IMG/VR virus record: IMGVR_UViG_3300045988_177228
Span: 1 to 64,000 of that record
Length of the DNA stretch: 64,000 nucleotides
Origin: a virus
Reading direction: 5' to 3' (one strand)
The notes under the pieces were generated by a model. It made no database searches and had not been told where the DNA came from. It was given only the letters and a program-made list of their open reading frames with translations. Positions 191 to 60,310 of the stretch are shown piece after piece. The first letter of the stretch is position 1; each line of letters begins with the position of its first letter. The position numbers and the translations under genes are program-made.

Positions 191-212
191 TGTGTGAACA
201 ATTCCAGTATAG
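191..212 (-). promoter_or_regulatory. M1-box copy (tgtgtgaacaattccagtatag), 25 nt upstream of the gene starting at 167
   Basis: Near-identical 22-mer recurs at least 15 times in the window, always 5' of a gene and in the gene's orientation. Contains a TAnAnT -10-like hexamer. Confidence 0.7.
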
Positions 213-327
213 CCTAAGTTGAGATAAAACACAACACGCAACCAAGCCAAAACGAAGACGCAATCCCCGCCCATACGAAAAAAAGGAATACGCCCACATG
301 ATTTTCCTGCGGGCGTATTCCCATGTT

Positions 328-636
328 TTAGTTCAGAAGTCCGGAGCGATACAGAATCCTGCGGATATTGATGCTGTGGACGAAAGCGGTGTCAGGCTGT
401 CCAACGAAGTCGGCAAGCTGCTCGTCGGAGCAAGTCTCGTCAACGGCGGCATCCAAAACCACCTCGGTCGGAGAGTCGAACATCCTACAGCCGACGCCGT
501 CATGCCCCTCAATGTGCTCGAACAAGGCGAAGTATGTCATGTTCTCGTCTGCAACACGCAACATGACATAGGAGGTATTGCCGTTGTGGAAGATGTTGTA
601 GTCTGCTGCGCCGAATCGTGCGAAATACTCGTTCAT
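328..636 (-). CDS. hypothetical protein (103 aa), paralog of 6129..6443
   Basis: ATG at 636 with RBS after M1-box 658-680. Shares FGA(A/E)DYNIF(H/A)NGN(T/K)SYVM...LFEH(I/V)EG with the 6129..6443 product. The longer track ORF reads through the motif. Confidence 0.6.
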   Translation of the reverse strand: MNEYFARFGAADYNIFHNGNTSYVMLRVADENMTYFALFEHIEGHDGVGCRMFDSPTEVVLDAAVDETCSDEQLADFVGQPDTAFVHSINIRRILYRSGLLN

Positions 637-657
637 TTTGGCTCTTTCTCTCATATT

Positions 658-680
658 TGTGTGAACAATTCCAGTATAGC
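658..680 (-). promoter_or_regulatory. M1-box copy
   Basis: tgtgtgaacaattccagtatagc, upstream of gene start at 636. Confidence 0.7.
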
Positions 681-813
681 ATATTTGAGAGAAAGAGCAA
701 AAACACAAAACACAAAAAGCCGCGCAAACGCAAAAGCATCCACACGACTCGATATTTTTTCACCACTATACGGAGGGCGGTGCGGTTCCCTCCGCCGCAG
801 TAGGTGCTACCGA

Positions 814-1110
814 TTAGTCGTAGTCCGACGGTTCACCATTGACATAGTTCCAAAACTGGTCGAAGGCATATTGCGCGGTATCCTCATACCGGCATGGCTT
901 CGGCTGTGCGTTCTTTTCCTGCTCTTTCTGCTCTATCAACTGGTCTATTTGGCTTTGCTCATTGCGGTGCTGCCATGAAAGTGGTTCGTTGCCTTGGGCT
1001 AGGTTCTCATACACCGTGTATTCGTGCCCGCGATAGCTGTAGACAAGATAGACCATATGTGCGTCGTATCCGTGCCCGTAGTATTTTCTGATAAATGTCG
1101 CTTTTCGCAT
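814..1110 (-). CDS. hypothetical protein (~98 aa)
   Basis: ORF with internal ATG at 1110 preceded by gaaaggga RBS, 11 nt after stop of the upstream gene (1122). Codon usage consistent with neighbours. Confidence 0.45.
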   Translation of the reverse strand: MRKATFIRKYYGHGYDAHMVYLVYSYRGHEYTVYENLAQGNEPLSWQHRNEQSQIDQLIEQKEQEKNAQPKPCRYEDTAQYAFDQFWNYVNGEPSDYD

Positions 1111-1121
1111 TGCTATCCCTT

Positions 1122-2042
1122 TCAACCAATCTCGCGCTCGGCACGCTCCCAAATCTTCCGGCGAATCTCACTATCCTTGGAAAACATGGAGCCAAGCTCC
1201 AACACTTGACGGACGGCTTCGCGGTATTCCTCCAAACGGTCATGCAAGGCCATATACGCGTCGCTTTCGAAAGCCTGATTGATGAACGAGTCCGGCATGT
1301 CACGCATGACCTTGACCAGCCTGTAACGTCCCACCTCGTCCGCGTTCTCCCAAGCGTTCATGACACGCTCACAAGTGGCCCACTGCGGCTTGCAGGCCAG
1401 CACATGCGCCACATCCTGCGGGTTAAGACGGGACAACACTTCATCCACCTTGCCGTCTTCGGTCAGAAGAGCCGCCTGAACGCGAATCTGACTGTTGGGA
1501 TTGTCCAGCCAATGTTCGACACATTCCTTATCGAAGTTATGGTTATAGATAAGGGTTTTGACCACACGCTCGTCCGACTCCTCGAAGAAGAGGTGAGGGT
1601 CTGCGTTCTTTGCCGCCATGAGTCGAATCTGATAATCCTCGTCGTGGGACAAACCGTTCGACGTTTCCTTGTCGAGCTTGCTGAACTTGTTGAGCATTGT
1701 GGCCGCTTTCTTGCGAATCTCGGCGCTCCTGTCATGTAGGGCCACTTTGGATAGTTCCTTGACGGGTAGTTTCTTTTCGTCGTATACGCGCCAGTCGAAG
1801 TAGTAGTTACGGACTTTCAGGGGTAGTTCGGAGAGTTTGCCGGAGTTGAAATGCTGTCTGATGTTGGCGAGTTCGTCTTCGCCTGTTTGGGTGAGAGTCC
1901 AGTCGCCCGTCTCGTTTTCCTGAATGAGTCCGGCTTTGGCGAGTTTGGTGATGTCGCGGTCGGGGAATACTCGGCGTTCGGGTTCGCGCTCGAATCGCAT
2001 GAATTCGTAGACTGCGGTTTCGTTCCAGTTGATGTCGCTCAT
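1122..2042 (-). CDS. HEAT/LRV-like helical repeat protein (~307 aa)
   Basis: Long ORF. ATG at 2042 with AAGGAG RBS immediately after M1-box 2079-2100. Repetitive helical DExxxIRxxAA motifs. No catalytic motif recognised. Confidence 0.6.
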   Translation of the reverse strand: MSDINWNETAVYEFMRFEREPERRVFPDRDITKLAKAGLIQENETGDWTLTQTGEDELANIRQHFNSGKLSELPLKVRNYYFDWRVYDEKKLPVKELSKVALHDRSAEIRKKAATMLNKFSKLDKETSNGLSHDEDYQIRLMAAKNADPHLFFEESDERVVKTLIYNHNFDKECVEHWLDNPNSQIRVQAALLTEDGKVDEVLSRLNPQDVAHVLACKPQWATCERVMNAWENADEVGRYRLVKVMRDMPDSFINQAFESDAYMALHDRLEEYREAVRQVLELGSMFSKDSEIRRKIWERAEREIG

Positions 2043-2078
2043 TTTTTGCTCCTTGGCTTCCATATTTTTGTGTGAACA

Positions 2079-2100
2079 ATTCCAGTATACAATTTGCTTG
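2079..2100 (-). promoter_or_regulatory. M1-box copy
   Basis: tgtgtgaacaattccagtatac directly 5' of the gene start. The track ORF N-terminus MSKQIVYWNCSHK is a translation of the box. Confidence 0.7.
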
Positions 2101-2185
2101 GACAAAACACGCTACAAAACAAAAAGCGGGAACTACAGCAACAAGAGTGTGATGCAAGGCTTCCTTTCTTTTTGCCGAATATGAG

Positions 2186-2224
2186 AGAAGTAGAAGGAAG
2201 TAGTAATACGGCAGTCTTCCAATT
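2186..2224 (-). repeat. 39-bp conserved element R39, copy A (reverse orientation)
   Basis: Reverse complement aattggaagactgccgtattactacttccttctacttct matches 28802-28840 and 56102-56137 at about 36 of 39 positions. Confidence 0.7.
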
Positions 2225-2234
2225 TTAGCGTGGG

Positions 2235-2531
2235 TCAGAGGATTCGGGTTCCCTTGCGGGTGACGAGCATGATTCGGTTTTCGTGGCGGTTCTCGAAAAC
2301 GTCCCAGTTGCCGCTCAGGACAGCCAAGCACGCGTTGCCTTTGATGAGGTTCCAACGTTCGTCGCAGTTGGATACGACGTGCTTCCAGTTGGTTGGGTTG
2401 GGCTTGTGGTGGGAGGTTTCCACGATGGCTTCGGTCATGGGCTTGTCGGCGTAGGCGTGGTCGTAGGTGTTGTCGCTTGCGACGATGCTGATGGTGCCGT
2501 TGTCGAATGCGATTGGCTGGATGGTGTTCAT
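2235..2531 (-). CDS. hypothetical protein (98 aa)
   Basis: ATG at 2531 with aaaggagaaaac RBS. Degenerate M1-box at 2580-2602. Confidence 0.55.
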   Translation of the reverse strand: MNTIQPIAFDNGTISIVASDNTYDHAYADKPMTEAIVETSHHKPNPTNWKHVVSNCDERWNLIKGNACLAVLSGNWDVFENRHENRIMLVTRKGTRIL

Positions 2532-2579
2532 GTTTTCTCCTTTTGTTGTTGTGGGGACGAACCCTTTTTGTGTGGACAT

Positions 2580-2602
2580 GACCACTATAACACATGGTCT
2601 GA
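2580..2602 (-). promoter_or_regulatory. degenerate M1-box (tgtgtggacatgaccactataac)
   Basis: 17 of 23 match to consensus, same position relative to gene start. Confidence 0.3.
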
Positions 2603-2701
2603 AATATCACAATACGAAAAACAAAAAATGCCGACCAGCGCCTAGAAGCGGAAGACCAAGCCGCAAAAGCTAAACCCGTCGAATCCAACGGGTTTGGAAT
2701 C

Positions 2702-3025
2702 TCAGGAAATCAGTTGCCAAATCAGCCAGCCGACCAACCCCCACAGTACGAGCACCCCAATCGCATACATCCACGTGCCCGCGTATCCGCCCGCGAGGAA
2801 CGCGCTCATCCGACGTTTCCGTTGCTCCAGCAGTGCGTACCATTCGCTCTCGCAACGGTCGAACATGTCCGCGTCCATGCGGGTGCCGCCGTACATGTCG
2901 AGCCAATCGCGCACGGTCGGCATGGGACCCAACGGGTCACGCAGACGGGCGTGCGGTATGAGGGCTATTTTCAACCCCTGCCACATGCCCTTGAGGAAGA
3001 ACGCGGGTAGCCTGTCCCCGGTCAT
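2702..3025 (-). CDS. hypothetical protein with C-terminal transmembrane helix (108 aa)
   Basis: ATG at 3025 overlaps the stop of the upstream small gene (ATGA). Hydrophobic C-terminus IGVLVLWGLVGWLIWQLIS. Confidence 0.5.
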   Translation of the reverse strand: MTGDRLPAFFLKGMWQGLKIALIPHARLRDPLGPMPTVRDWLDMYGGTRMDADMFDRCESEWYALLEQRKRRMSAFLAGGYAGTWMYAIGVLVLWGLVGWLIWQLIS

Positions 3026-3190
3026 GACAGCTCCCCGCATGGTTCGACGGTTTGCCTCAGCCCCCGTTCGACCAGTGCTCTCACCGCCGCGTTCCACGTG
3101 AGTTCGTTATCGTCGGCGTATTGCATGGTCTGCCGGTACAGGTCGGCGGGCATCTGTATTACTCGGCTTACGTTTGGCGTCTTCAGCATT
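3024..3190 (-). CDS. small ribbon-helix-helix-like protein (55 aa)
   Basis: Not in ORF track (<60 aa). ATG at 3190 with taggagacaacc RBS. Product MLKTPNVSRVIQMPADLYRQTMQYADDNELTWNAAVRALVERGL resembles CopG/RHH antitoxin-type DNA binders. Confidence 0.45.
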
Positions 3191-3202
3191 GTAGGTTGTC
3201 TC

Positions 3203-3379
3203 CTATCGGAATATGCGGGCGAGCGAGTCCGCGTCTATATATCGGCGGTGCATGACCTTGTAGGTGCGGATTCGTCCTGCCTTGATGAGGTCGTACACGT
3301 GCTGGCGGGAGCAGTGCAGGTACACCATGGTGTCCGCGATGGTGAGGATGGTGGGCAGTTCCTTGTTATTGGCGCTCAT
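3203..3379 (-). CDS. excisionase-family / MerR-like HTH DNA-binding protein (58 aa)
   Basis: MSANNKELPTILTIADTMVYLHCSRQHVYDLIKAGRIRTYKV is a typical HTH_17/Xis-type helix-turn-helix. Start overlaps stop of 3376..3684. Confidence 0.6.
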   Translation of the reverse strand: MSANNKELPTILTIADTMVYLHCSRQHVYDLIKAGRIRTYKVMHRRYIDADSLARIFR

Positions 3380-3684
3380 GACCTGACCCCCAGTGCCGTG
3401 GCGACGGCCATGTGCAGGCGGTCGGCGTCCAGCTTGTCCAAGGTCTGCGGGGCGAGTGTGGCGGGCATGGTGTTGGCCGCGTCCGGTGTGTTGTAGATGC
3501 CGCCGGTCCACAGGTGGCGTCCGTCGGGGAGGGGTTTTTCCTTGGCGGTGTAGAACCATACGCCTTCGCCCAGTGTGAAGGTGATGTTGACGCCGTTGTG
3601 GTCGGGGGTGGGTTCGGCGTCCTTTATGCGGGGGTCGTCGGTGAGCTGGTCGAAGAGTCGTTCGTAGATGGTTTTGCGAATCAT
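3376..3684 (-). CDS. hypothetical protein (102 aa)
   Basis: ATG at 3684 with aaaggagaaaagc RBS downstream of M1-box 3717-3739. Confidence 0.6.
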   Translation of the reverse strand: MIRKTIYERLFDQLTDDPRIKDAEPTPDHNGVNITFTLGEGVWFYTAKEKPLPDGRHLWTGGIYNTPDAANTMPATLAPQTLDKLDADRLHMAVATALGVRS

Positions 3685-3716
3685 GGTGCTTTTCTCCTTT
3701 GTTGCGTCAACTCTTT

Positions 3717-3739
3717 ATGTGAACAATTCCAATATAGCA
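3717..3739 (-). promoter_or_regulatory. M1-box copy (tatgtgaacaattccaatatagc)
   Basis: Motif recurrence. Confidence 0.65.
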
Positions 3740-3816
3740 CGTTTGGATAAACATACAAAACAAGACACGTCCACACAAAAAGCCCCGCCAAAACGACGGG
3801 GCCACAATCCTGAAAA

Positions 3817-4017
3817 CTAACGATTCATACTCAATCGAACTTCAACCGCGACGGTCAGCAACACCACCGTAATGGCGCACACGGATACGATACCGAACGT
3901 GCGGCCAAACGTGAACAGCCAAGTGCCGAACGAGTAGATGCCGAACGCGACTGCGGTTGCCACCCCACCGAAAGCGATGGTGACAAGCGTCATAAGCAGA
4001 ACATCCTTGATATGCAT
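3817..4017 (-). CDS. small membrane protein (66 aa, two TM helices)
   Basis: ATG 4017 with aaaggagaaaa RBS after M1-box 4057-4078. Hydrophobic throughout. Confidence 0.5.
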   Translation of the reverse strand: MHIKDVLLMTLVTIAFGGVATAVAFGIYSFGTWLFTFGRTFGIVSVCAITVVLLTVAVEVRLSMNR

Positions 4018-4056
4018 TTTTTCTCCTTTTGGTGATGGGTTTTACGAACCCTTGTT

Positions 4057-4078
4057 TGTGTGAACAATTCCAGTATAC
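4057..4078 (-). promoter_or_regulatory. M1-box copy
   Basis: tgtgtgaacaattccagtatac. Confidence 0.7.
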
Positions 4079-4150
4079 ATCATGTTGGGTACGACACGCC
4101 AAACAAAAAGCGCCCCACCCATCCAAGGGAGAGGCGCTAAAACCCGACGG

Positions 4151-4528
4151 TCAGAACTCATACTCGCAATCGGAATCGAGATACCATTTGTCGCCGTAAC
4201 CCCAAAGAACACGACGGATGGTCGCAGGGTCGTTCAGCTCAACGAACTTGGACGCCAGTTCATCCACCGACTTGGCGGAAAAAGCCTTGCCGACGGAAGC
4301 GTAGAATTCATCCCATTCCGCCTGTTCGGCGTCGGAATCGACCAGCTCACGGAACCGTCCGGCAAGCTTCTCGTCCGGTAGTGTCGCTTCCGCAAAATTC
4401 GTGTCCTCTATATCCGACCAAGCGCCGAAACACTTGTCGGCCAACGATTCAACCGGAATGGTGAGGATGCTGGAATACGTGCCCTTCCAAGCGTTCTTCT
4501 TGAAGAAGCTAACGTCTCGTGCCTTCAT
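4151..4528 (-). CDS. acidic hypothetical protein (125 aa)
   Basis: ATG 4528 with aggagg RBS. Strongly acidic (D/E-rich). Confidence 0.55.
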   Translation of the reverse strand: MKARDVSFFKKNAWKGTYSSILTIPVESLADKCFGAWSDIEDTNFAEATLPDEKLAGRFRELVDSDAEQAEWDEFYASVGKAFSAKSVDELASKFVELNDPATIRRVLWGYGDKWYLDSDCEYEF

Positions 4529-4541
4529 TTTCCCGTTCCTC

Positions 4542-5036
4542 CTATTCTTCCTCGCCATCCGCCTGACGGAGTGGAACGATACGGTTCCACTGTTCCGTGT
4601 ATTCATTCTCCACATCCTTGGAACCATTGTCCAGCAGTTCGTTCAAAGTGGCTCGTCCTACGTCGCTGAGACGGCTGATGCTGCGGAGAATGCTCGCCAC
4701 GTCGTCGGCTTCGTATAGTTTATTGCGATTGTCCGACAGTTCCTGATACTTCGAGTCGGTGAGGTTCCAAACATAGTCTTCCAGCAGTTTCCAGTCCTCC
4801 TTTTCGGCAGAGGGTACTGGAATCGGCTTGGTGAGCCGCCAATCTTCGAGAATGTCCGCCCAAAGGTCGGTCTTGACATTGTATTCGCCAAGGTCTTCCT
4901 CGTGGGTGAGTTTTTCGATTCGCTGTTCTTCGCCATCCTCGTCCAAGTAGTCTATTGTGAGATATTCCCTATCCACTGACAAGGTGGAGAGTTCGCGTAG
5001 TTTGGTGATTTTGAGGTTGACGATTGTGTTAATCAT
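4542..5036 (-). CDS. very acidic hypothetical protein (164 aa), candidate DNA-mimic/anti-restriction-type protein
   Basis: ATG 5036 with caaggagg RBS after M1-box 5068-5090. About 30% D/E. The ArdA-like idea rests on size and charge only, no motif match. Confidence 0.55.
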   Translation of the reverse strand: MINTIVNLKITKLRELSTLSVDREYLTIDYLDEDGEEQRIEKLTHEEDLGEYNVKTDLWADILEDWRLTKPIPVPSAEKEDWKLLEDYVWNLTDSKYQELSDNRNKLYEADDVASILRSISRLSDVGRATLNELLDNGSKDVENEYTEQWNRIVPLRQADGEEE

Positions 5037-5067
5037 TTTTTGTTCCTCCTTGTTGGAATCTATTTTT

Positions 5068-5090
5068 TGTGTGAACAATCCCAGTATACC
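5068..5090 (-). promoter_or_regulatory. M1-box copy
   Basis: tgtgtgaacaatcccagtatacc. Confidence 0.7.
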
Positions 5091-5150
5091 ATGTTTGTTG
5101 TGAAAAACAAAAACAGCCCACTCCCCAAAGCAAGGAAGCGGGCTGAAAAG

Positions 5151-5975
5151 TCAGGCATTCAGCAAAGCGTGGGACGAAACACCCATTTCAGACAAACCCA
5201 AACCCACATTGTTCGCGTCACTCACACCACGGGCAAAACCATCCTTGCTACCACGAGCAGTGGCCGCATGACCCGACACCAGCTCAAGCTTGTCAAAATA
5301 CTCGTTCAGACGCTGACTCTTACATGACACCAGCTCACGACCGGAAGGAATGGCGAGACTCTGCTTGCGAAGCTCCTCGAAACGTTCGCTCAAACGTTCG
5401 TTGAATCCACCGCGATAACCATAGTAGAACTTGGCGCGTGGATAATCACGACGCATGTACTGTTTGCATTCCGTCAGCGTCGGATAGGATTCATGTCTGT
5501 AATGCGTTTCGACGTATTCCTTGTTGTTCTCATAGTACGCTTTGGCGTGCTGGTCAATCATGTCCGCGTAGCTGGTGCGGGCGTGGATTGAGCAGTATAG
5601 GTCGATGCTTTGGAAGAGAATGACTGCGGCGTTCACATCGTCCTCCTCGCCTACGAACATGACGGCACGTTCCTCAATCCTTCCGCCACACCGGCTTTCG
5701 TGAAGGTAGGTGCGGCATTCGTTAGCTTGGGCGATGATGGTCGCAAGGTAGCCTTGCTGATGGTAGATGGTGGTTTTGCTTACGTTCACGCCACGTTCGA
5801 TGATTGGCTTGTTCGTGCGGGTGCGGTCGCGTTTCCAGTCTTCGATACGATATTCGTTAATGAGTTTCTGTGCCCGCTCGAACGCCATTTGCGCCTCATT
5901 GTCGCTGGAAGCTTCGTTTTCGGCTATTGCCATGAGGTTGTTGATGCGTTCGATGATGCTGTCGATGTTGCTCAT
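5151..5975 (-). CDS. DUF2786-like protein (274 aa)
   Basis: ATG 5975 with caaggagc RBS after M1-box 6006-6027. N-terminus IIERINNLMAIAENEASSDNEAQMAFERAQKLINEYRI matches the DUF2786 signature (..KLLALAEST.NE.EA.AA..KAQELM.KY.I) seen in phage and plasmid proteins. Confidence 0.55.
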   Translation of the reverse strand: MSNIDSIIERINNLMAIAENEASSDNEAQMAFERAQKLINEYRIEDWKRDRTRTNKPIIERGVNVSKTTIYHQQGYLATIIAQANECRTYLHESRCGGRIEERAVMFVGEEDDVNAAVILFQSIDLYCSIHARTSYADMIDQHAKAYYENNKEYVETHYRHESYPTLTECKQYMRRDYPRAKFYYGYRGGFNERLSERFEELRKQSLAIPSGRELVSCKSQRLNEYFDKLELVSGHAATARGSKDGFARGVSDANNVGLGLSEMGVSSHALLNA

Positions 5976-6005: not shown

Positions 6006-6027
6006 TGTGTGAACAATCCCAGTATAC
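6006..6027 (-). promoter_or_regulatory. M1-box copy
   Basis: tgtgtgaacaatcccagtatac. Confidence 0.7.
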
Positions 6028-6472: not shown

Positions 6473-6494
6473 TATGTGAACGATTCCAGTATAC
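6473..6494 (-). promoter_or_regulatory. M1-box copy
   Basis: tatgtgaacgattccagtatac. Confidence 0.7.
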
Positions 6495-27148: not shown

Positions 27149-27170
27149 ATACCCTTTGTTATACTGGAAA
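27149..27170 (+). promoter_or_regulatory. M1-box copy, plus orientation (ttatactggaaacgtccacaaa)
   Basis: Reverse-complement orientation of the box, 60 nt upstream of ATG 27230. Confidence 0.65.
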
Positions 27171-27229
27171 CGTCCACAAAAAAGGGAGTCGCACACCTCC
27201 CCAACACGCCAGAACAAAAAGAAGAAACC

Positions 27230-50804: not shown

Positions 50805-51327
50805 TAGCCTGTTTCTCCATGCGACCCGTCGCCCGTAAAGTATGGTTATAGATTCCATATGAGGGCGGCGGGTTGTCTTTTTGTATGAGAGATAAGGGTT
50901 TGCAATGTCCGATGTCAAAAAAAATTCAGAGTACGAAATTGAAAACTATGACGAACATGTAAACGCGGTAGGAGATAGCTCTGCACCTGTTTCTCTCCTC
51001 TTGGGAATAGGTGTCGGTGGTTTTGACGAAAAAGATTACAGAGATTATCTGGAAGAGAAAAACACGCGTTGAACCCCTTGTCAGAAAAATTTTTCCTGTT
51101 TTTCCGGTTTCTCGCTCGATGAATGTTCGAGGTCGTTTACTGTGACAGTTGAGACCGGGTTTTCGTGGTATATCTTCCACCATCTGGTTTCTTCCCCGGT
51201 CTCTGTGGAAAGCTCCTCTCGGGGAGTGTGTTTCGGGTTCCGCCACCCGTGTGTGGATTCTTTTTTGGGTGGCGGAACCATTTTCTTTCCTAATTGGCAT
51301 TGTGGCGATTCGAGAAGAGAATGATGT

Positions 51328-51349
51328 TATACTAGAAGCGTTCACACAA
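51328..51349 (+). promoter_or_regulatory. M1-box copy (ttatactagaagcgttcacaca)
   Basis: 30 nt upstream of ATG 51380. Confidence 0.65.
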
Positions 51350-51795: not shown

Positions 51796-51819
51796 TTATA
51801 GTGGAACCAGTCACAAACA
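51796..51819 (+). promoter_or_regulatory. M1-box copy (ttatagtggaaccagtcacaaaca)
   Basis: Upstream of TTG 51835. Confidence 0.55.
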
Positions 51820-53717: not shown

Positions 53718-54670
53718 AGCCTTGGTTCCAAGACGACACGCTGACGCTCTATCTGGGCGACGCATCGTCCGTGCTTCCCGATTTGCCCGACGGAAGCGTC
53801 GATTGCATCGTCACCAGTCCGCCGTACTACGGGTTGCGTCAATACACGGATTCCGAACTGGAAATCGGACGCGAACCCACACCCGGCGGCTATGTGGAAG
53901 ACCTCAGCAAAGTATTCCGCGAATGCAGACGAATCCTAGCCGATGACGGCACGCTCTGGCTGAACTTGGGTGACACGTACTCCACGCCGAACCTGTGGGA
54001 CGGCGGCGACGAGTCGGAGACCAGCATCGGATTGCACGGACATGCGCAGAAACCGAACGGCAGAAAACGTCCAGACCGTCCGGCGAAGAACCTGCTCGGC
54101 ATCCCGTGGAGAGTGGCGTTCGCATTGCAGGATGACGGTTGGATATTGCGCTCGGATATCATTTGGGGAAAAACCAATCCCATGCCGGAAAGCGTGAAAG
54201 ACCGTCCAAGCAAAAGCTACGAGCATATTTTTCTATTCTCCAAAACCGAAAAATACTATTACGACTACCAGTCCGTAAGACAACGGCAGTCGGAGAAAAC
54301 CATTGAGGATTTAGCTCACCGGCATACGCTCGGCAACAAAAGCGCATATGGTGGCGTCCGCGAGGATTTGGGAAGAGACCGTAGGGAATACGTGGCATCG
54401 GACGGCAGACGAAACCTACGCGACGTGTGGATGTTGCCGACCCGCCCGTATGCGGGAGCGCATTTTGCGGCTTTTCCGTTGGATATTCCCCTCACATGCA
54501 TTCAGGCCGGTTGCAAGCCGGGCGGCGTGACGCTCGACCCGTTCAACGGTTCCGGTACCACCGGGTTGGCGGCTGCGATGCTGGGGTGTAGGTATGTCGG
54601 TGTTGATTTAAACGAACAATATTTGGAATTGAGTCTGCGAGACCGTCTGAATCAGCCTGCGTTCGTATAG
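53714..54670 (+). CDS. DNA methyltransferase, beta-class amino-MTase (N4-C or N6-A)
   Basis: Motif IV VTSPPYYGL before motif I LDPFNGSGTT. TTG overlapping previous stop. No adjacent restriction endonuclease recognised. Confidence 0.85.
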   Translation: MKPWFQDDTLTLYLGDASSVLPDLPDGSVDCIVTSPPYYGLRQYTDSELEIGREPTPGGYVEDLSKVFRECRRILADDGTLWLNLGDTYSTPNLWDGGDESETSIGLHGHAQKPNGRKRPDRPAKNLLGIPWRVAFALQDDGWILRSDIIWGKTNPMPESVKDRPSKSYEHIFLFSKTEKYYYDYQSVRQRQSEKTIEDLAHRHTLGNKSAYGGVREDLGRDRREYVASDGRRNLRDVWMLPTRPYAGAHFAAFPLDIPLTCIQAGCKPGGVTLDPFNGSGTTGLAAAMLGCRYVGVDLNEQYLELSLRDRLNQPAFV

Positions 54671-54684
54671 GAGATTGGAAAAAA

Positions 54685-54888
54685 ATGCTGTCGTTATTAT
54701 CACAACAGAATGTGCTTATCGCATTGGCTGTGGGAGCTATCATATTGGCGCTCATGTTCCTTGTGTCCGCATTGGAAGACTTGTTGGGTAGTGATACGAG
54801 ACTAGGGGAGTTGTGCGGTCGCAGGAACCTGAGATGGGCTGTGGTCATTCTGACCATCGTGGCGGTTCTCACGGTAGTGGTCATCTGA
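54685..54888 (+). CDS. small membrane protein (67 aa)
   Basis: gagattggaaaaaaATG. Two TM helices. Confidence 0.45.
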   Translation: MLSLLSQQNVLIALAVGAIILALMFLVSALEDLLGSDTRLGELCGRRNLRWAVVILTIVAVLTVVVI

Positions 54889-54896
54889 CTTTTCTG

Positions 54897-54926
54897 ACTG
54901 GGGCGGCGTCGAGTCGCCCCTTTTTT
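54897..54926 (+). terminator. rho-independent terminator
   Basis: GGGGCGgcgtcgagtCGCCCC followed by TTTTTTATTTT. Confidence 0.75.
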
Positions 54927-54975
54927 ATTTTCGGAATCGTGGATTTGAGTTTTCAGGCAATCACTTAACCTATGC

Positions 54976-54997
54976 TATATTGGAATCGTTCACATAA
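54976..54997 (+). promoter_or_regulatory. M1-box copy (ctatattggaatcgttcacata)
   Basis: 20 nt upstream of ATG 55017. Confidence 0.65.
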
Positions 54998-55016
54998 GCA
55001 GACGTAAAGGAAAACC

Positions 55017-55274
55017 ATGAACCAAAAAGTCCTCATCGCTCTCAACAACGGAGCGAAACGTATCGTATACCGTGACGACCTCTGCCACGAGCTGGCCGAC
55101 CTGCTCCGGCTCTACCTGCACGCCGACGCGTTGCCGGGAACAGGGGAACGTTGGGAACTGTTGAGGACGCTTGCATCCACTCTCATTGGTCGCGCTGTCG
55201 AAAAAGGGCTTTTTGAGGACTGCGCCCGCGTGAACGTGTATCCGGTTTCTTTTCAAATGGTTCAGCCTGATTGA
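55017..55274 (+). CDS. hypothetical protein (85 aa)
   Basis: aaaggaaaaccATG. Confidence 0.55.
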   Translation: MNQKVLIALNNGAKRIVYRDDLCHELADLLRLYLHADALPGTGERWELLRTLASTLIGRAVEKGLFEDCARVNVYPVSFQMVQPD

Positions 55275-55293
55275 CGTATTCAACAAACTGAGT

Positions 55294-55317
55294 TACAGTG
55301 GAACTGTTCACACATAT
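55294..55317 (+). promoter_or_regulatory. M1-box copy (ttacagtggaactgttcacacata)
   Basis: 22 nt upstream of ATG 55339. Confidence 0.65.
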
Positions 55318-55338
55318 AGACCCAAAGGAGAAAACCAA

Positions 55339-55602
55339 ATGACCGTCAACGAACTCATAGAACAATTGAAGAACCTACCCAAGGAAGTATGCGAACAACC
55401 CATCATGAACGGCAAGCCGAACGTAGGCTACCGGCTAGCCGGTCTTCACGCAATTTCAGCCGCCAAGGTCATTGTATCCGACGACGGCGTTTGCAACGTG
55501 TACGACCCGGAGCTTTCCGACGAGGAAAACGTAACAGAGTTGGAAAACCGATATGGCATGCCAATGCATGTCGAGCATCGAGTGCTGGCGTTCTTCGATT
55601 GA
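55339..55602 (+). CDS. hypothetical protein, MTVNELIEQLKNLP family member 1 (87 aa)
   Basis: aaaggagaaaaccaaATG. N-terminus paralogous to the 57386 and 57610 products. Confidence 0.6.
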   Translation: MTVNELIEQLKNLPKEVCEQPIMNGKPNVGYRLAGLHAISAAKVIVSDDGVCNVYDPELSDEENVTELENRYGMPMHVEHRVLAFFD

Positions 55603-55612
55603 GAAAGGTTCT

Positions 55613-56074
55613 ATGAAAATGGACGCGCACACTCCTATCAATATTCCCATCCGTCTCGAACAGTGGCTCAAAGGCGACAACGTTTTAGATGTCGAAACAA
55701 TCATCATCGACGCCCGGCCAATCCTAGACGCAACCGATTTCGACAATCTTCCCGAATGGGAGGATTGGGATGCGGACTTCATCGCGGAGGACGCTCAAAG
55801 AATCGGACTGCTGAAAATGTGGTCTGGGCCATTCACGGTCGAACTGTTTAATTGCGACGAGTATCCCGACTATCTCGAATGGCGTAAAACCCATAAGACC
55901 ATTGAGGGTGCCGCAGAACATATCCTCGACTTGAGCAAGAAGGAATTGCAACGGCGAATCGAAGAAACCAAGAAGCAACTCGACAAGTATGTTAGCCAAT
56001 ATGAGGCATTATGCGAGGAACAGTATCCGCGTCAAACTTCTGGAACGGAACTGGTTGGCAGACTACTCGTCTAA
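55613..56074 (+). CDS. hypothetical protein (153 aa)
   Basis: gagaaaggttctATG. Acidic. Confidence 0.55.
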   Translation: MKMDAHTPINIPIRLEQWLKGDNVLDVETIIIDARPILDATDFDNLPEWEDWDADFIAEDAQRIGLLKMWSGPFTVELFNCDEYPDYLEWRKTHKTIEGAAEHILDLSKKELQRRIEETKKQLDKYVSQYEALCEEQYPRQTSGTELVGRLLV

Positions 56075-56101
56075 CATCCGAAGGGAAAAAGGAAAGCCAA
56101 A

Positions 56102-56137
56102 GATTGGAAGACTGCCGTATTCATACTTGCTTCTACT
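56102..56137 (+). repeat. R39 element copy C
   Basis: gattggaagactgccgtattcatacttgcttctact. Confidence 0.7.
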
Positions 56138-56195
56138 CTGTTGGACATGGCCCGCGCCATGGGTGGTCACAGCTACGACGAGATGTGGCGGGCCA
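56138..56195 (+). other. duplicated fragment of the 5' end of gene 56512..56880
   Basis: tggacatggcccgcgccatgggtggtcacagctacgacgagatgtggcgggccaacg is about 85% identical to 56556-56612 (tggatatggcccgtgctatgggtggctacggctacgacgagatgtggtgggctgacg). Confidence 0.6.
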
Positions 56196-56252
56196 ACGCT
56201 TTGCCGGGCATAATCGGGTCGGCCTGTACGACGAACAAGGAAAGGTTTTTTA

Positions 56253-56510
56253 ATGTCGGTTGATTCGATTCTCTCATTGGTGGGCCTGCTGTTCGCTGTT
56301 CTGGGTGTGCTGGCCACTCTCATCTCCTACGCCTTCGGTTTGGAGTGGGCGGACGTTCTAGTTCCGTTCTGTTTCTTCGTTCTGCTGGTCTGTCAGATGG
56401 TGCGACTTGTCTGCTATCGGGAAACCGACGCGCTGGCTCCCATGGCGACAGCAGGATTTGCCGTCATCATCTGGCTGGTGGCTCTCACGCGGCGGAACGG
56501 AGGTTCTTGA
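56253..56510 (+). CDS. small membrane protein (85 aa)
   Basis: Three hydrophobic helices. Stop 1 nt before next ATG. Confidence 0.45.
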   Translation: MSVDSILSLVGLLFAVLGVLATLISYAFGLEWADVLVPFCFFVLLVCQMVRLVCYRETDALAPMATAGFAVIIWLVALTRRNGGS

Positions 56511-56511
56511 A

Positions 56512-56880
56512 ATGATTGACATGCAGGACACTGAGGAAAATCGTTGGCTACTGCTGGATATGGCCCGTGCTATGGGTGGCTACGGCTACGACGAGATGTG
56601 GTGGGCTGACGTTTTTGAGCCGGACGAATTGGAGTATTCCGCTCCCGACTTGTATGAGAAGTTCGTCAACTCGTCCGACTATGACCCTGCCGCTCACTGG
56701 TTCCGTCGTAAGGAATACGGTGTCGGTTTCAAGTCGGTCACGGACGAGAGCCTGTTGGCGGATGCTTGGCATATGCGGGATGATATTGTCGAATTGGCTT
56801 CTCGTAGGGATGTGTGGCTGAATATTCCGGATATCGATTTTGTTTCGTGTATTCGGAAGCTTGGGGTTGTGGTTTCTTAG
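56512..56880 (+). CDS. hypothetical protein (122 aa)
   Basis: ATG 56512 (MIDMQDTEENRWLLLDMARAMGGYGYDEMWW). Its 5' coding segment is partially duplicated upstream. Confidence 0.55.
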   Translation: MIDMQDTEENRWLLLDMARAMGGYGYDEMWWADVFEPDELEYSAPDLYEKFVNSSDYDPAAHWFRRKEYGVGFKSVTDESLLADAWHMRDDIVELASRRDVWLNIPDIDFVSCIRKLGVVVS

Positions 56881-56905
56881 GATTATTTCCCTGAATATTT
56901 CATGC

Positions 56906-56927
56906 TATACTGGAAACGTTCACAAAA
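56906..56927 (+). promoter_or_regulatory. M1-box copy (ctatactggaaacgttcacaaa)
   Basis: 21 nt upstream of ATG 56948. Confidence 0.65.
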
Positions 56928-56947
56928 AAGTTTTCAGAAGGAGCAAA

Positions 56948-57382
56948 ATGGGCAACATCGAAACACTCGTCACACCCATCCCAAAGGGCCAGACGAAAAA
57001 TGCAACCACGGAAAAGGCCATCGTCATCTCCTACAGTTCGAACGGCCACTACCGTGAGCGAATCTTCTCCAAGGAATCCTATACAAGTGGCAGTTCATGC
57101 TATCGGAACGGAGCATATTATCTGGATGCACTTCTCGGCGGACAACTCGACTGGGAGTCCGTGGAAGCCGCAGGTTTCGACTCGACAGCCGGATTGAAAG
57201 CCTACGCCATCAAGGACGGAGTTCCCTTGTGGCATTGGGTTCTGACTGACGGCACCGTCATAACCTCAATACAACAGTTCGAATACTGCAAGTTCTCAAT
57301 GGCTAAAATCAAAACATTGGATGGCCGGAATGTAATCCTGAACATGTCGAACGTCCTGTACGCGACCACTGACGAGAAGTGA
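56948..57382 (+). CDS. hypothetical protein (144 aa)
   Basis: gaaggagcaaaATG. Confidence 0.6.
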   Translation: MGNIETLVTPIPKGQTKNATTEKAIVISYSSNGHYRERIFSKESYTSGSSCYRNGAYYLDALLGGQLDWESVEAAGFDSTAGLKAYAIKDGVPLWHWVLTDGTVITSIQQFEYCKFSMAKIKTLDGRNVILNMSNVLYATTDEK

Positions 57383-57385
57383 GGT

Positions 57386-57601
57386 ATGGGAATGACGGTG
57401 AACGAGCTTATAGAAAAACTCCAAAAACTCACGCCGGAAGAACGAGAACTTCCCGTATGCAACTATTCGTTGCTTGACCCATATGCCATCAACGAATTCG
57501 AATACTATGACGAAATAGTCGATGAAGTGCATGTGGACGAGATTACTAATCCCGCTAATTCAGAACTGACGGTGGGTGAAAAAGCCGTGTTTTTAAGGTA
57601 G
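57386..57601 (+). CDS. hypothetical protein, MTVNELIE family member 2 (71 aa)
   Basis: gaggtATGggaATG. N-terminus MTVNELIEKLQKLTPEERELPV. Confidence 0.5.
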   Translation: MGMTVNELIEKLQKLTPEERELPVCNYSLLDPYAINEFEYYDEIVDEVHVDEITNPANSELTVGEKAVFLR

Positions 57602-57609
57602 GAACAAAA

Positions 57610-57828
57610 TTGACCGTGCAAGAACCCATCAAAGCGCTTCAAAACCTTCCAGCAGAATCCCAGAACCGTCCGGTCTGTGTGGCCGTAGCCTCGAACGACC
57701 CTAACGGTATCCCCTATTCGGAATACCGTCTGGGAGATTCCTCGAAAGTGGAGGAACGATATTCCGAATGCGGGGGAGGGAGAACCGCAGTGGTTCTTCC
57801 CGCAGTGATGGACGAGGTTGTTAAATAG
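57610..57828 (+). CDS. hypothetical protein, MTVNELIE family member 3 (72 aa)
   Basis: TTG start. LTVQEPIKALQNLPAESQNRPV. Confidence 0.4.
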   Translation: MTVQEPIKALQNLPAESQNRPVCVAVASNDPNGIPYSEYRLGDSSKVEERYSECGGGRTAVVLPAVMDEVVK

Positions 57829-57951
57829 AGGATTTGTTGACGACGACAGGAGGGAAGACAAACATGGTCGAGGAATACTGGAAACGTCTTTGCCGCTCGT
57901 TTAACAAGAAATACGTTCGTGAAATAGAGACGAGATTGCAGGAGAAAAACC

Positions 57952-58170
57952 ATGATGGTGAACGTCGTCATACTTGAAGACCAGTATGCGCCGGAGGAAT
58001 ACGAGATTGTCGGCGTATGTGATGACACGCATCTCAGGAACACATATGCGGAAGCTGTTAGAAGACATGTCGGGAACCCTGTTCTCGAATTCGAGCGACA
58101 TGACCGTGAGCGGGAAGCGCACTCGTACATTCATGTCACACGAATCGAAATGAACAAAACGAAGGAGTAA
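57952..58170 (+). CDS. hypothetical protein (72 aa)
   Basis: caggagaaaaaccATG. Partial M1-like sequence gaatactggaaacgtc at 57876-57892 upstream. Confidence 0.5.
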   Translation: MMVNVVILEDQYAPEEYEIVGVCDDTHLRNTYAEAVRRHVGNPVLEFERHDREREAHSYIHVTRIEMNKTKE

Positions 58171-58172
58171 CC

Positions 58173-58874
58173 GTGGAAAACCACTATTATGCGACGTTAG
58201 GTCACGCTAATGCCGACATATTGCCACTCGTGCAACAGTTCGATAGTCGGCGGCGGAGAGACCAGTGGGTTCAGCATTCCCGACTAGCTGGTTCCGATAT
58301 TGAGGTGCGACCGGTCACGGCTAGACAGGCTGATTCGTTGACCCGTAGACTGGTTCACCGGCTCGACCGGTATCTTCTGCAAGCTCCGGAATACGAGCCG
58401 TTATCGGACATGAAAGACGAATACTATCTGCGACGTAACCCGTTCTGCCATCATGACGGCAATTACGACGCGCCACTGTCCACAGTCAACGGCTCCTACC
58501 GTCCCTACCTGCAATGGCGGGAAAGCAACACGTGGGAGCATGAAGTCTGGTACTGGGGGGTACTATTGGCTTCTGCTGCGGATAGGATGCTTGCGGAGAA
58601 GTTTAGAAAACATTTGAGCGAACTGCACAGTCGGGAGGACTGTCGGGATATTCAACGCATGACTGCGGAAATCAAATGGTTCACCATCCCCGAAGTCAAT
58701 CTCATGGCAGAGACCGGGGACTCACAAAACTGGTACCCTCGCTACTCGCATTCAGACATGAACGACAATATTCGTCTCCGCTTGAACAAGGCGATTGAAA
58801 CCACCGACTCTGAGGAATTCGTGGACATTGCCTACAAGCTGGGACTATTCCTCCCGGAAGGGGAAGACGATTGA
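58173..58874 (+). CDS. hypothetical protein (233 aa)
   Basis: aaggagtaaccGTG start. Confidence 0.55.
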   Translation: MENHYYATLGHANADILPLVQQFDSRRRRDQWVQHSRLAGSDIEVRPVTARQADSLTRRLVHRLDRYLLQAPEYEPLSDMKDEYYLRRNPFCHHDGNYDAPLSTVNGSYRPYLQWRESNTWEHEVWYWGVLLASAADRMLAEKFRKHLSELHSREDCRDIQRMTAEIKWFTIPEVNLMAETGDSQNWYPRYSHSDMNDNIRLRLNKAIETTDSEEFVDIAYKLGLFLPEGEDD

Positions 58875-59497
58875 GCGTCGAAGAAACAGGAGTTTGGACG
58901 GAAACTTATCCAAAAGAACCTTGCCCATTCTGCGGAAAAACGGTTGCTATTCGAATCAGCGAGATTCTTATTGTGGACAAAAAATACTGGAAAGTCCGTA
59001 TTTTCGACGATAGTGGTTGCCCGTTGTCCGCAATGTTCGAGCGGGGCTTGCGAATGGGGTCAGCGGGGGAAGTGTGTGCCGTTCTTAAAAAGGATTGGCA
59101 TGAGATTGTGGAAACCGTTTCCAATATGCCGGTTTGTCCTGAATGTGGACGCTCTCCGGTTTGTCGTTATTCCAAGAACCTCGACCGTTGGATTATCCTT
59201 TGCGAAAAAGGACATTTGAGAACGGATGAGGCTTTCGTTCTCTCTGCCATGAGGAATTGGAACAAGAAAGTCGGTCAATATGTTTGCGACAATCAGAACC
59301 AACGACTCGGTCAATGTCTGACGGAGTTTTGGTATCAAGGGGATACGTCGGACGAGAATCTTCCGGAATTCATGAGGCAAAGCTGGCGTGAACGAAAACG
59401 TGAATTACCATCCGCTCCGCCGTTGCGTCATCTGCAACGAACTAGTGGAGGCCGACGACCCGACATGCGCGGTCTGCGGACAACCGGCTTGCAGTGA
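58871..59497 (+). CDS. Cys-rich (zinc-ribbon-like) hypothetical protein
   Basis: TTG overlapping previous stop. CPFCG...CPECG pairs. 3' end overlaps next ORF by 110 nt. Confidence 0.45.
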   Translation: MSVEETGVWTETYPKEPCPFCGKTVAIRISEILIVDKKYWKVRIFDDSGCPLSAMFERGLRMGSAGEVCAVLKKDWHEIVETVSNMPVCPECGRSPVCRYSKNLDRWIILCEKGHLRTDEAFVLSAMRNWNKKVGQYVCDNQNQRLGQCLTEFWYQGDTSDENLPEFMRQSWRERKRELPSAPPLRHLQRTSGGRRPDMRGLRTTGLQ

Positions 59498-59747
59498 CCA
59501 CGCTTACGATGTGGGTGGCGGCGAATGGTATTGCACCGACTGCTGCCACGGAAAAACTCACCCGTGTGCGGACTGTGATGCGCCCTCCCATTGGCGGTGC
59601 AAGGATTGCGGCAAATGGGTTTGCGAAAACCATTCGACATTCGTCACGGTTCAAGGTGAGGAATTCTATACTCTTTTCGGCTACTACTGCGATACTGATT
59701 TACGGTGGGAACTAGCGGAAGAACAAGCTAAGGAGGTGACGTTGTGA
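59388..59747 (+). CDS. Cys-rich zinc-binding hypothetical protein (119 aa)
   Basis: CVICN..CAVCG..CTDCC..CADCD..CKDCGKWVC: multiple CxxC pairs. Confidence 0.45.
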   Translation: MNENVNYHPLRRCVICNELVEADDPTCAVCGQPACSDHAYDVGGGEWYCTDCCHGKTHPCADCDAPSHWRCKDCGKWVCENHSTFVTVQGEEFYTLFGYYCDTDLRWELAEEQAKEVTL

Positions 59748-59941
59748 GCGAAAAAACCAGACGGGATAAGACGTTGAAGCTTATCGAGGACGGCGAAGAC
59801 GATGAGGTCATTCGAGTCCTAACCGGATACCAGCCGTCGGTAATCCAAATGCTCAGAAAGGAAGCCATATGCAACATCACAAAACCCGATAGAGGGGACT
59901 CCTCTGATTCGGATTTGGAAGTGCAAGGCGACCTGTTCTAA
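59744..59941 (+). CDS. small hypothetical protein (65 aa)
   Basis: GTG overlapping previous stop. Confidence 0.35.
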   Translation: MSEKTRRDKTLKLIEDGEDDEVIRVLTGYQPSVIQMLRKEAICNITKPDRGDSSDSDLEVQGDLF

Positions 59942-59981
59942 TATTTCGGCAAAAACAAGCACTAACCCAAAGGAATAAATC

Positions 59982-60236
59982 TTGACCGTTGAAATCAGCG
60001 GCATGTACACCGCCAACATGAAACGCCGGGCGAACCTATATCTTTGGCGGGGCAATATCCCCATCGTGGACTCCGTTCAGGATGTTCGGCGGGAGGATAT
60101 CGGCACTGTTGTAGAAAAGCTCCGAATGTTTGTGGGTGCTCTTATCGACGCCGGATACGGCGGGGATAACGTGTTGGGTTGGCGTAATGACCCGGTTTGT
60201 GTGAGAGGAACAAGCTGGTTCACGCTTGAGTTTTAG
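59982..60236 (+). CDS. hypothetical protein (84 aa)
   Basis: aaaggaataaatcTTG. Confidence 0.4.
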   Translation: MTVEISGMYTANMKRRANLYLWRGNIPIVDSVQDVRREDIGTVVEKLRMFVGALIDAGYGGDNVLGWRNDPVCVRGTSWFTLEF

Positions 60237-60288
60237 CCGCTCCTTTTCTGGGAGTGGCTTTTATTTTCCCATCCAGATGTTATAGTGG

Positions 60289-60310
60289 AATTGTTCACAA
60301 AAAAAATGGT
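60289..60310 (+). promoter_or_regulatory. M1-box copy (ttatagtggaattgttcacaaa)
   Basis: 14 nt upstream of RBS/ATG 60324. Confidence 0.65.

Follow-up and report, generated by a model that had tools for sequence, protein, structure and literature searches.

In the Bifidobacterium megaplasmid pMP7017, a 34-bp motif (AWAYATGYTATACTGAATATGTCCACATAAAAWA) lies over the -10 region of highly transcribed genes, as seen by RNA-seq (Dineen et al. 2024, Microb Biotechnol 17:e14405; PMC10832533). Nineteen copies were reported, predicted to drive 56 genes or ~24% of the coding capacity, and the motif, which the authors saw in related plasmids but in no bifidobacterial chromosome, was described as 'likely a transcription factor binding site' (PMC10832533). 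No reader was named in that paper and DnaA is never mentioned in it. Here, we analysed a homologous repeat, the M1 box, in a 64-kb stretch of an IMG/VR virus record (IMGVR_UViG_3300045988_177228, positions 1–64,000; 'the window', to which coordinates refer unless pMP7017 is named). Two points go beyond a preliminary description of this DNA, namely that the motif was already described in the pMP7017 family and that the 3' half of the box fits a DnaA box, so that the reader is more likely to come from the host than from the plasmid. We put the probability that host DnaA gates these promoters through a DnaA box at their start sites at roughly one half. Whilst the motif itself is already published for pMP7017 (PMC10832533), we found nothing in the literature searched on a DnaA reading, on box variants inherited with genes, on mosaic joints at boxes or on how very prevalent the window lineage is.

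The pMP7017 motif shares with the M1 box a TG-n-TATACT, a 6-nt spacer, GTYCACA, an A-rich leader and a Shine-Dalgarno sequence, in many dispersed copies <60 nt before gene starts on a homologous plasmid backbone. We located 26 copies of the sister motif TATACTGAATATGTCCACA (TATACTG-N5-GTCCACA) on pMP7017 (190 kb), in the same layout. Five orthologous gene pairs carry a box in both the window and pMP7017, and the window boxes are therefore homologous members of the pMP7017 motif family. The two differ in consensus (GGAATT-GTTCACA-c in the window versus GAATAT-GTCCACA-t in pMP7017). As to the flanks, given for pMP7017 as AWAYATGY (5') and TAAAAWA (3'), the window has ATG/TGn in 10/16 boxes and a 3' flank of cAAA, not TAAAA.

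Other described systems share parts of this design. Sigma-70-family promoters that work independently of a -35 element, with an extended -10 and a GGGA discriminator, are known from the Thermus and E. coli literature; M1 resembles them in its TGnTATACT, the following GG(A/G)A and the weak or absent -35, whereas that class lacks a conserved start-site block. Global plasmid regulons (KorA/KorB of IncP, ArdK/StbA of IncW and the omega heptads of inc18 plasmids) likewise place one short sequence in many promoters, those of genes for maintenance, establishment or the leading region. In these regulons plasmid proteins recognise palindromic operators or heptads in tandem arrays, whereas M1 is single, asymmetric and matches the site of a host factor. 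The stoperators of cluster A mycobacteriophages and the start-associated sequences of cluster K are, like M1, asymmetric motifs in dozens of transcription-oriented copies on an actinobacterial mobile element. Stoperators are read by the immunity repressor and keep no fixed distance to a -10, whereas start-associated sequences are tied to the start codon. M1, in contrast, is tied to the -10, and in the control region of the window's XRE repressor the palindromes are unrelated to it. Finally, M1 shares with DnaA-regulated promoters (dnaA, nrdAB, guaB; lambda pR) and the DnaA-titrating locus datA an asymmetric 9-mer fitting TTWTNCACA / TT(G/C)TCCACA and varying at position 5; it sits inside the RNA polymerase footprint, like the boxes of promoters that are repressed by occlusion. 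Unlike these, M1 is a single box in a fixed register (-2 to +7), and it recurs, unclustered, on a mobile element instead of at a few host genes (16 promoters in the window, 26 on pMP7017).

A promoter module with a conserved block at the predicted start site

The repeated box noted in the preliminary description is real. The pattern TTATACTGGAANNGTTCACA, with ≤3 mismatches, matched 15 sites in the window versus 0.04 expected, and the 3' half alone, with ≤1 mismatch, matched 16 versus 1.85 expected. A position weight matrix (PWM) trained on the 15 pattern-matched sites scored them at 30–48 bits, the best score in 20 background shuffles being 6.6 bits. The matrix additionally picked up a site at 2571–2590(-) (28 bits), recovering the degenerate copy claimed at 2580, and a weak one at 62133–62152(-) (12 bits). 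A gapped search (TAnnnT-N5-8-GTYCACA) gave 18 matches versus 0.8 in shuffles. This search added 62154–62173(+), where the spacer is 7 nt; it is exactly 6 nt in all strong boxes. In total there were 16 strong copies of the 20-bp form TGnTATACT-GGAAnn-GTYCACA, nine on the minus and seven on the plus strand, plus the weak variants at 62133 and 62154 (Table 1). The positions given earlier were off by 0–10 nt, and the first group, listed as plus strand, actually reads on the minus strand. Two further degenerate copies, claimed at 44060 (parA) and 57876, have only TACTGGAA in common with the box and fall below the PWM threshold. The -10 hexamer was TATACT, TATAGT, TATATT or TACAGT in 16/16 strong boxes, and the block was GTTCACA in 13, GTCCACA in two and AGTCACA in one.

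The anatomy of the box bears out the idea that its 5' half is a -10 element. TAnnnT occupies -12 to -7 in 16/16 boxes and TG occupies -15/-14 in 10/16, and in 164 non-identical copies from relatives the -10 is followed by GG at -6/-5 and preceded, at the canonical spacing of 17 bp, by a weak TT(G). A plain -35/-10 consensus scan detected three boxes only, so the M1 boxes are largely -35-independent extended -10 promoters, followed by a GG(A/G)A discriminator. As the 5' half is an ordinary extended -10, the dedicated sigma factor that had been considered is not needed. From the spacing, transcription is predicted to start at the G of GTYCACA, 7 nt after the -10, which agrees with the start-site position suggested earlier for the invariant 3' half. 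Relative to this start, a conserved 9-mer spans -2 to +7, and conservation in relatives extends to +10/+11, with cAAA at +8 to +11. Every strong box is followed by a co-oriented start codon with a Shine-Dalgarno sequence 19–51 nt downstream, confirming that boxes lie upstream of genes and in their orientation. Terminator-like hairpins stand directly upstream of at least eight boxes, which gives the unit order terminator, box, leader, Shine-Dalgarno, small gene. Together, these features strongly support the view that the M1 box, a homologue of the pMP7017 motif, is a sigma-A promoter module of the extended -10 type placed at the head of insulated cassettes of accessory genes.

The leaders (26–58 nt, 49% A) were no more structured than shuffles (mean z 0.06), and no Rfam family or tRNA was found, which speaks against a structured leader RNA. 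Single-stranded folds of four boxes, on both strands, gave z of -0.8 to +1.4 for three of them, no better than shuffles, so that the suggested Frpo-like hairpin was not borne out. The fourth, box 660, is special through its flanks alone; it is bracketed (region 620–720) by a perfect 13-bp inverted repeat (GCTCTTTCTCTCA / TGAGAGAAAGAGC) that places the entire promoter in the loop, and it is the sole box so arranged. Some leaders (e.g. those of the 4059 and 2571 boxes) share a short element, AAGGGTTCG..., a few nt past the block; this element is also seen in relatives and could fold into a small hairpin.

The placement of the block at the predicted 5' end of each transcript raises a second reading, in which it acts as RNA, a shared 5'-GUYCACAyAAA tag read by an RNA-binding factor or nuclease for stability or translation. 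Conservation to +10/+11 would suit such a tag, as would the transitions by which its variable positions differ (Y at +3; R at +1 in ATTCACA and AGTCACA), being tolerable in pairing with a partner RNA. However, the leaders lack secondary structure and an Rfam match, the distance from the block to the Shine-Dalgarno sequence varies, no complementary conserved RNA was found, and conservation takes in T(-1) and the A/T-rich -2, which precede the transcript, as expected of a DNA site. We consider this reading very unlikely.

Host DnaA as the candidate reader

Viewed as a DNA site, the block resembles a DnaA box. The 9-mer is TTGTTCACA in nine of the 16 boxes and ATGTCCACA in one, the others being ACGTCCACA, TCGTTCACA and similar. 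Ten of the 16 are within one mismatch of TTGTCCACA and 15 keep T-N-CACA. The published DnaA-box consensus is TTWTNCACA for E. coli (PMC5835720); for Actinomycetes it is TT(G/C)TCCACA and for H. pylori TCATTCACA (both PMC4285127), and the oriC boxes of B. longum include TTATCCACA, TTGTCCACA, TTATTCACA, TTACCCACA, TTATGCACA and others (PMC2430713). The block, TTGTYCACA, fits the actinomycete form, with G at position 3, T4 and C6–A9 kept, and T or C at position 5. With an anchor that left the block unconstrained, the commonest 9-mers were TTGTTCACA (45), ATGTCCACA (39) and close variants, and the perfect TTGTCCACA occurred six times. The rare M1 variants GCCCACA, GTGCACA and ATTCACA mirror B. longum oriC box types at positions 3–5. 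The chance of a conserved 9-mer lying within one mismatch of the consensus, over ~24 registers and strands, is ~0.003, a post hoc figure before allowing for other consensus comparisons.

We read the M1 box as the 'cassette promoter' specific to the pMP7017-type family of Bifidobacterium megaplasmids. The promoter layer of this mechanism is well supported. Sigma-A RNA polymerase of the host uses the TGn, the TATACT and the GG(A/G)A discriminator, the -35 contributing little or nothing, and transcription is predicted to start at the G lying 7 nt after the -10. Each cassette comprises a terminator, an M1 box, a 26–58-nt A-rich unstructured leader, a strong Shine-Dalgarno sequence and a small accessory or establishment gene. 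In a second, less certain layer, host DnaA would bind the -2 to +7 block, (T/A)(T/C)GT(T/C)CACA. As this overlaps the start site, the size of the free DnaA pool would gate all of the promoters, repression being the simplest mode. The boxes together (16 strong in the window, 26 on pMP7017; a single-copy ~225-kb replicon) may also act as a DnaA sink, and the direction of the DnaA effect could be repression, activation or titration. Both repression and activation by DnaA are established, and boxes carried on plasmids titrate the protein (PMC8203912). A 2021 replicon paper reported no DnaA consensus at the pMP7017-type origin in B. longum relatives, so the M1 boxes are not origin elements.

Several observations weigh against a role for DnaA. 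There is one box per promoter, whereas strong DnaA regulation and titration usually involve clusters, and arrays are rare here; tandem or inverted block arrays (omega-type heptads, palindromic doublets) were rare in relatives, and pairs ≤25 nt apart were at chance level in the window. Box positions 1–2 are only weakly T-rich, and T at position 5, as in most window copies, makes a poorer box in the E. coli literature (PMC5835720). The conserved cAAA at +8 to +11 is unexplained by a DnaA box. In growing cells, the genes behind the pMP7017 motif rank with the most strongly transcribed (PMC10832533), so that repression would have to be partial, or the effect be activation, for example by DnaA stabilising RNA polymerase. 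Lastly, the DnaA match came after several other consensus sequences had been tried and is therefore post hoc. Sites of LexA/Cheo, CRP/GlxR and PhoP, the -35/-10 of extracytoplasmic function (ECF) sigma factors, rrn boxA and integron core sites were considered and dismissed on spacing or on mismatch to the C-type block. Targeting of the box by CRISPR/Cascade was also set aside, as the 15 spacers of the second pMP7017 array gave no match.

The regulon or operator idea of the preliminary description agrees with the published account for pMP7017, in which a plasmid-encoded regulator was the reading offered (PMC10832533). Here, such a regulator would read the start-site block in a KorA/ArdK-type plasmid regulon, shut down after establishment. 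The candidates are the XRE protein 61525–61896 (ImmR/ImmA-like), a small ribbon-helix-helix (RHH) or HTH_17 protein, the ParA neighbour 44890–45345 and the Orc1/Cdc6-like protein 6730–7887. The block TGTYCACA is an 8-bp quasi-palindrome of a size typical of small dimers, although a 12–13-bp palindromic operator of KorA/KorB type is not what the boxes hold, each promoter having one asymmetric 9-mer. For the XRE protein, the XRE/M78 control region holds GTYCACA at 62053 and 62167 (~0.1 expected), with TTGTTCAC inside a palindrome, and the operon is preceded by a conserved variant box. The parA gene of pMP7017, similarly, is preceded by a palindrome (TGTGAATTCACA) and a variant box, and the Orc1/Cdc6-like ATPase is conserved (52% identity with pMP7017) and adjoins the left box cluster. 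Against this, the palindromes upstream of XRE are unrelated in three lineages (RAACA-NN-TGTTY; a 17-bp inverted repeat; TGCGTC-N6-GGCGCA) while the M1 core is unchanged in all of them, which weakens an XRE/ImmR-like repressor as reader and likewise led us to reject a stoperator system of the immunity-repressor type. On pMP7017 there is no homologue of the HTH_17 or the RHH-like protein of the 3718 operon, the ParA neighbour had no Pfam match, and no KorB/ParB-family or omega homologue was detected. Outside boxes, GTYCACA, isolated or clustered, was not above chance elsewhere in the searches made. No plasmid candidate could be linked to the block sequence, and we judge a plasmid-encoded reader unlikely.

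The same contrast favours a host reader. The block stays unchanged while plasmid proteins diverge to 30–59% identity, and it is constant across the three lineages with unrelated XRE-region palindromes; both speak for a reader that is itself conserved, as a host protein would be.

One plasmid protein has itself been called DnaA. The pMP7017 supplement re-annotates B7017_p0202 as DnaA (PMC10832533), which, matched through annotation, is likely the 'ATP-binding protein' at 173878–175044 of pMP7017, 52% identical to 6730–7887. The model of the window protein (predicted local distance difference test, pLDDT, 81) has archaeal Cdc6/Orc1 as its top PDB matches (E ~1e-11) and only weak Walker-A similarity to DnaA; its predicted fold is that of an AAA+ ATPase of the Orc1/Cdc6 type, ending in a winged helix at the C terminus. 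It was set aside as a plasmid DnaA, being Orc1/Cdc6-like and not a domain-IV DnaA; it is still a candidate DNA-binding protein, with nothing linking it to the box.

The ImmR/ImmA-like pair at 61049–62217 (XRE helix-turn-helix 61525–61896 and M78 metallopeptidase 61049–61531) is conserved in pMP7017. The GAACA-AG-TGTTC upstream of XRE is kept as RAACA-NN-TGTTY in 83–99% identical relatives, and the 320-bp control region has four DnaA-box-like sequences.

Variants, mosaic joints and implications

Scans of IMG/VR yielded >200 box loci. Some are pure GTCCACA, like pMP7017, and the window lineage has ~80% GTTCACA and ~20% GTCCACA. The block variant follows the downstream gene family, being GTCCACA in 13/13 copies before the DnaQ-like exonuclease and in 10/10 before the 98-aa family of 2235–2531; other gene families carry ATTCACA, AACCACA or AGTCACA. 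Since T or C is inherited per gene and both forms occur on one plasmid, +3 is a tolerated position rather than a plasmid-wide specificity switch, and a concerted T/C switch was rejected on these grounds as evidence for a co-evolving factor. Homology breakpoints between the window (1–9600 and 46900–64000) and its IMG/VR relatives were concentrated at boxes, with 18/53 lying within -80 to +40 of a box versus 3.6 expected, and many at box offsets 0–1 or 21–26. With breakpoints piled up at their edges, the boxes are the joints of the mosaic, which suggests cassette exchange through recombination inside the shared box.

Divergent copies also occur on pMP7017. Its parA, unlike that of the window, has a variant box (TACACT-GAATGC-AGTCACA) with the palindrome mentioned above (L001 41820–41905). 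Its gene 60403–60795 is preceded (L002 10353–10380) by a perfect DnaA box of the E. coli type, TTATCCACA, after which come ATCCACA and TGTCCACA, all within 27 nt; this triple (60354–60380) was considered as an operator array and looks like a decayed box.

These patterns are also relevant to a reading that dispenses with a dedicated reader, in which the 25–30 bp form an optimised 'super-promoter' (extended -10, GGGA-like discriminator and initial transcribed sequence) copied with its cassette. The strong early promoters of coliphages T5 and T7, which share homology in the early transcribed region, are a precedent. The inheritance of block variants along with genes and the mosaic joints at box edges, which suggest cassette spread via recombination, would fit, as would a block anchored to the -10, at a fixed 6 nt, and not to the start codon, with leaders of anything between 26 and 58 nt, and the presence of the motif at the most highly transcribed pMP7017 genes (PMC10832533). 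The near-invariant heptamer, however, reaches to +7, beyond any known base-specific RNA polymerase contact, and bifidobacterial chromosomes, strong promoters included, were reported to lack the motif (PMC10832533). Some extended -10 promoters on the same plasmids have no block, which makes the block an add-on, and the match to a DnaA box would have to be coincidence. We regard a readerless promoter as quite unlikely.

Should host DnaA be the reader, pMP7017-type megaplasmids (~190–230 kb) would set a DnaA box at -2 to +7 over the starts of their cassettes, making the host initiator the master regulator of plasmid accessory and establishment genes and the plasmid a DnaA sponge; the same boxes would, in addition, be crossover points for cassettes exchanged between plasmids. 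We advance this wider picture tentatively, with a little less confidence than the DnaA reading itself. If true, it would be an unusual route by which a mobile element senses host replication state without a regulator of its own; plasmid carriage would be predicted to titrate DnaA, with relevance for fitness, and the sponge could shift the timing of host replication. The motif governs about a quarter of pMP7017 coding capacity by the published estimate, and the element, a gut megaplasmid, is extremely common (see below). The DnaA-box reading recasts the question of an 'unknown transcription factor' as one testable hypothesis on a purifiable host protein, for which B. breve UCC2003 carrying pMP7017 already provides a genetic system. 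The M1 box may also offer a compact, portable and strong -35-independent promoter for Bifidobacterium engineering.

Boxes, genes and the replicon

The genes behind the boxes were mostly ORFans in Pfam and PHROG scans, the recognisable ones being SSB, a DnaQ-like exonuclease, DUF2786/DUF7168 and DUF3310 (Table 1). Two pairs of small genes are paralogous, 328–636 / 6129–6443 (MN..YF..FGA.DYNIF..) and 55339–55602 / 57392–57601 (MTVNELIEQLKNLP..); both genes of the first pair and one gene of the second have their own M1 box. The open reading frame (ORF) behind box 193 may be truncated by an insertion of the IS200/IS605 type, and window 1–114 matches (90%) an IS200/IS605-adjacent region of the B. 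longum plasmid CP084013.

Table 1 M1 boxes in the window, the genes behind them and associated elements. Orthologues listed carry a box in pMP7017. aa, amino acids; TSS, transcription start site.
Feature	Position	Strand	Sequence and type	Gene behind the box and remarks	pMP7017 orthologue
M1 box	193..212	-	CTATACTGGAATTGTTCACA	ORF 30-167 (45 aa); found by pattern and PWM	
Parts of box 193	211-206 (-10); 201-193 (9-mer); 199 (TSS)	-	DnaA-box-like TTGTTCACA; predicted TSS G199		
Terminator-like hairpin	272-256			Upstream of box 193	
M1 box	660..679	-	CTATACTGGAATTGTTCACA	328-636 (102 aa, paralogue of 6129-6443)	
Terminator-like hairpin	750-717			With box 660	
M1 box	2071..2090	-	GTATACTGGAATTGTTCACA	1122-2042 (306 aa, weak HEAT-repeat match below Pfam cutoff)	79231-80163
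M1 box variant	2571..2590	-	TTATAGTGGTCATGTCCACA; C-type, 9-mer ATGTCCACA	2235-2531 (98 aa)	
M1 box	3718..3737	-	CTATATTGGAATTGTTCACA	Operon: 3376-3684, small HTH_17 protein (within 3203-3559), RHH-like ORF 3022-3189, 2702-3025	
Terminator-like hairpin	3803-3781			Upstream of box 3718	
M1 box	4059..4078	-	GTATACTGGAATTGTTCACA	3817-4017 (66 aa, hydrophobic)	
M1 box	5070..5089	-	GTATACTGGGATTGTTCACA; GGGA discriminator	4542-5036 (164 aa)	
Terminator-like hairpin	5145-5114			With box 5070	
M1 box	6008..6027	-	GTATACTGGGATTGTTCACA	5151-5975 (DUF2786/DUF7168)	27466-28245
M1 box	6475..6494	-	GTATACTGGAATCGTTCACA	6129-6443 (104 aa)	
Hairpin	6552-6536			With box 6475	
M1 box	27159..27178	+	TTATACTGGAAACGTCCACA; C-type	27230-27406 (58 aa) and plus-strand genes downstream	147990-148136
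M1 box	51327..51346	+	TTATACTAGAAGCGTTCACA	51380-51751 (123 aa)	34788-35150
Degenerate M1 box	51796..51815	+	TTATAGTGGAACCAGTCACA; AGTCACA type, inherited with gene family	51835-52167 (110 aa, basic)	
Terminator-like hairpin	54900-54920			With box 54975	
M1 box	54975..54994	+	CTATATTGGAATCGTTCACA	55017-55274 (85 aa)	
M1 box	55293..55312	+	TTACAGTGGAACTGTTCACA; canonical -35 TTGACG, 17-nt spacer	55339-55602 (87 aa)	
M1 box	56905..56924	+	CTATACTGGAAACGTTCACA	56948-57382 (144 aa)	
Terminator-like hairpin	60235-60259			With box 60280	
M1 box	60280..60299	+	TTATAGTGGAATTGTTCACA	60324-61052 (242 aa)	
Weak variant	62133..62152	-	TCATACTGGGCGTATTCACA	Toward XRE / M78-peptidase operon (61896-61049); kept in relatives whose XRE proteins are 83-99% identical	
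Variant box	62154..62173	+	TAGAAT-AAAAAAC-GTCCACA; 7-nt spacer	62218-63789; relatives have TAAAAT-AAAAAC-GTCCACA, canonical 6-nt spacer	

Although filed as viral, the replicon is a plasmid, as the preliminary description had it. The window encodes RepA_C, ParA, DnaB and a class C sortase homologue, and an 886-aa T4CP-like ATPase with 59% aa identity to Bifidobacterium megaplasmids (pMP7017 and five B. longum plasmids). Positions 27.5–52 kb are syntenic with 55.8–34.8 kb of pMP7017, backbone proteins sharing 30–68% aa identity. On this protein and synteny evidence, the window is part of a ~225-kb relative of pMP7017 that forms a separate lineage. Near-identical DNA in the plasmid and phage collections was limited to a 114-bp insertion sequence (IS)-related match, and the element was absent from GTDB representative genomes, where a 19-mer scan gave one chance match. 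The exact ParA sequence was found in 1626 blocks of a metagenome collection, on contigs of 210–232 kb, and IMG/VR contigs of 100–217 kb, also filed as viral, match the window patchwise at 85–99% identity. Homologues of 6730–7887 with an organism name were all from Bifidobacterium, except one from the related Bombiscardovia apis; judged by these homologues, the host genus is Bifidobacterium. This family is widespread in the genus, on plasmid-sized and chromosome-sized contigs.

Upstream of the RepA_C gene (45454–46323, -), a 670-bp non-coding stretch holds four to five 22-bp direct repeats (AAAGTTGGCACTTTCGACACGG) at 46454–46576, which are probably origin iterons unrelated to the M1 box. In pMP7017, the cas region listed for the record has no annotated cas3 gene, and a spacer of the second type I-E CRISPR array (L002 22907–22940) matches the plasmid's own gene (31718–31750; 81718–81750 of the record) at 33/34 nt, that is, it is self-targeting. 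A TnpB gene (OrfB_IS605 / Cas12f-like TNB) lies at 48554–49753 of the window. The cluster at 12054–21054 includes the class C sortase homologue (18421–19314, 40% identical to the pMP7017 sortase), which adjoins a 1796-aa ORF, as in pMP7017; we take the cluster to be a sortase-dependent surface-protein or pilus locus, the sortase match being the tested part.

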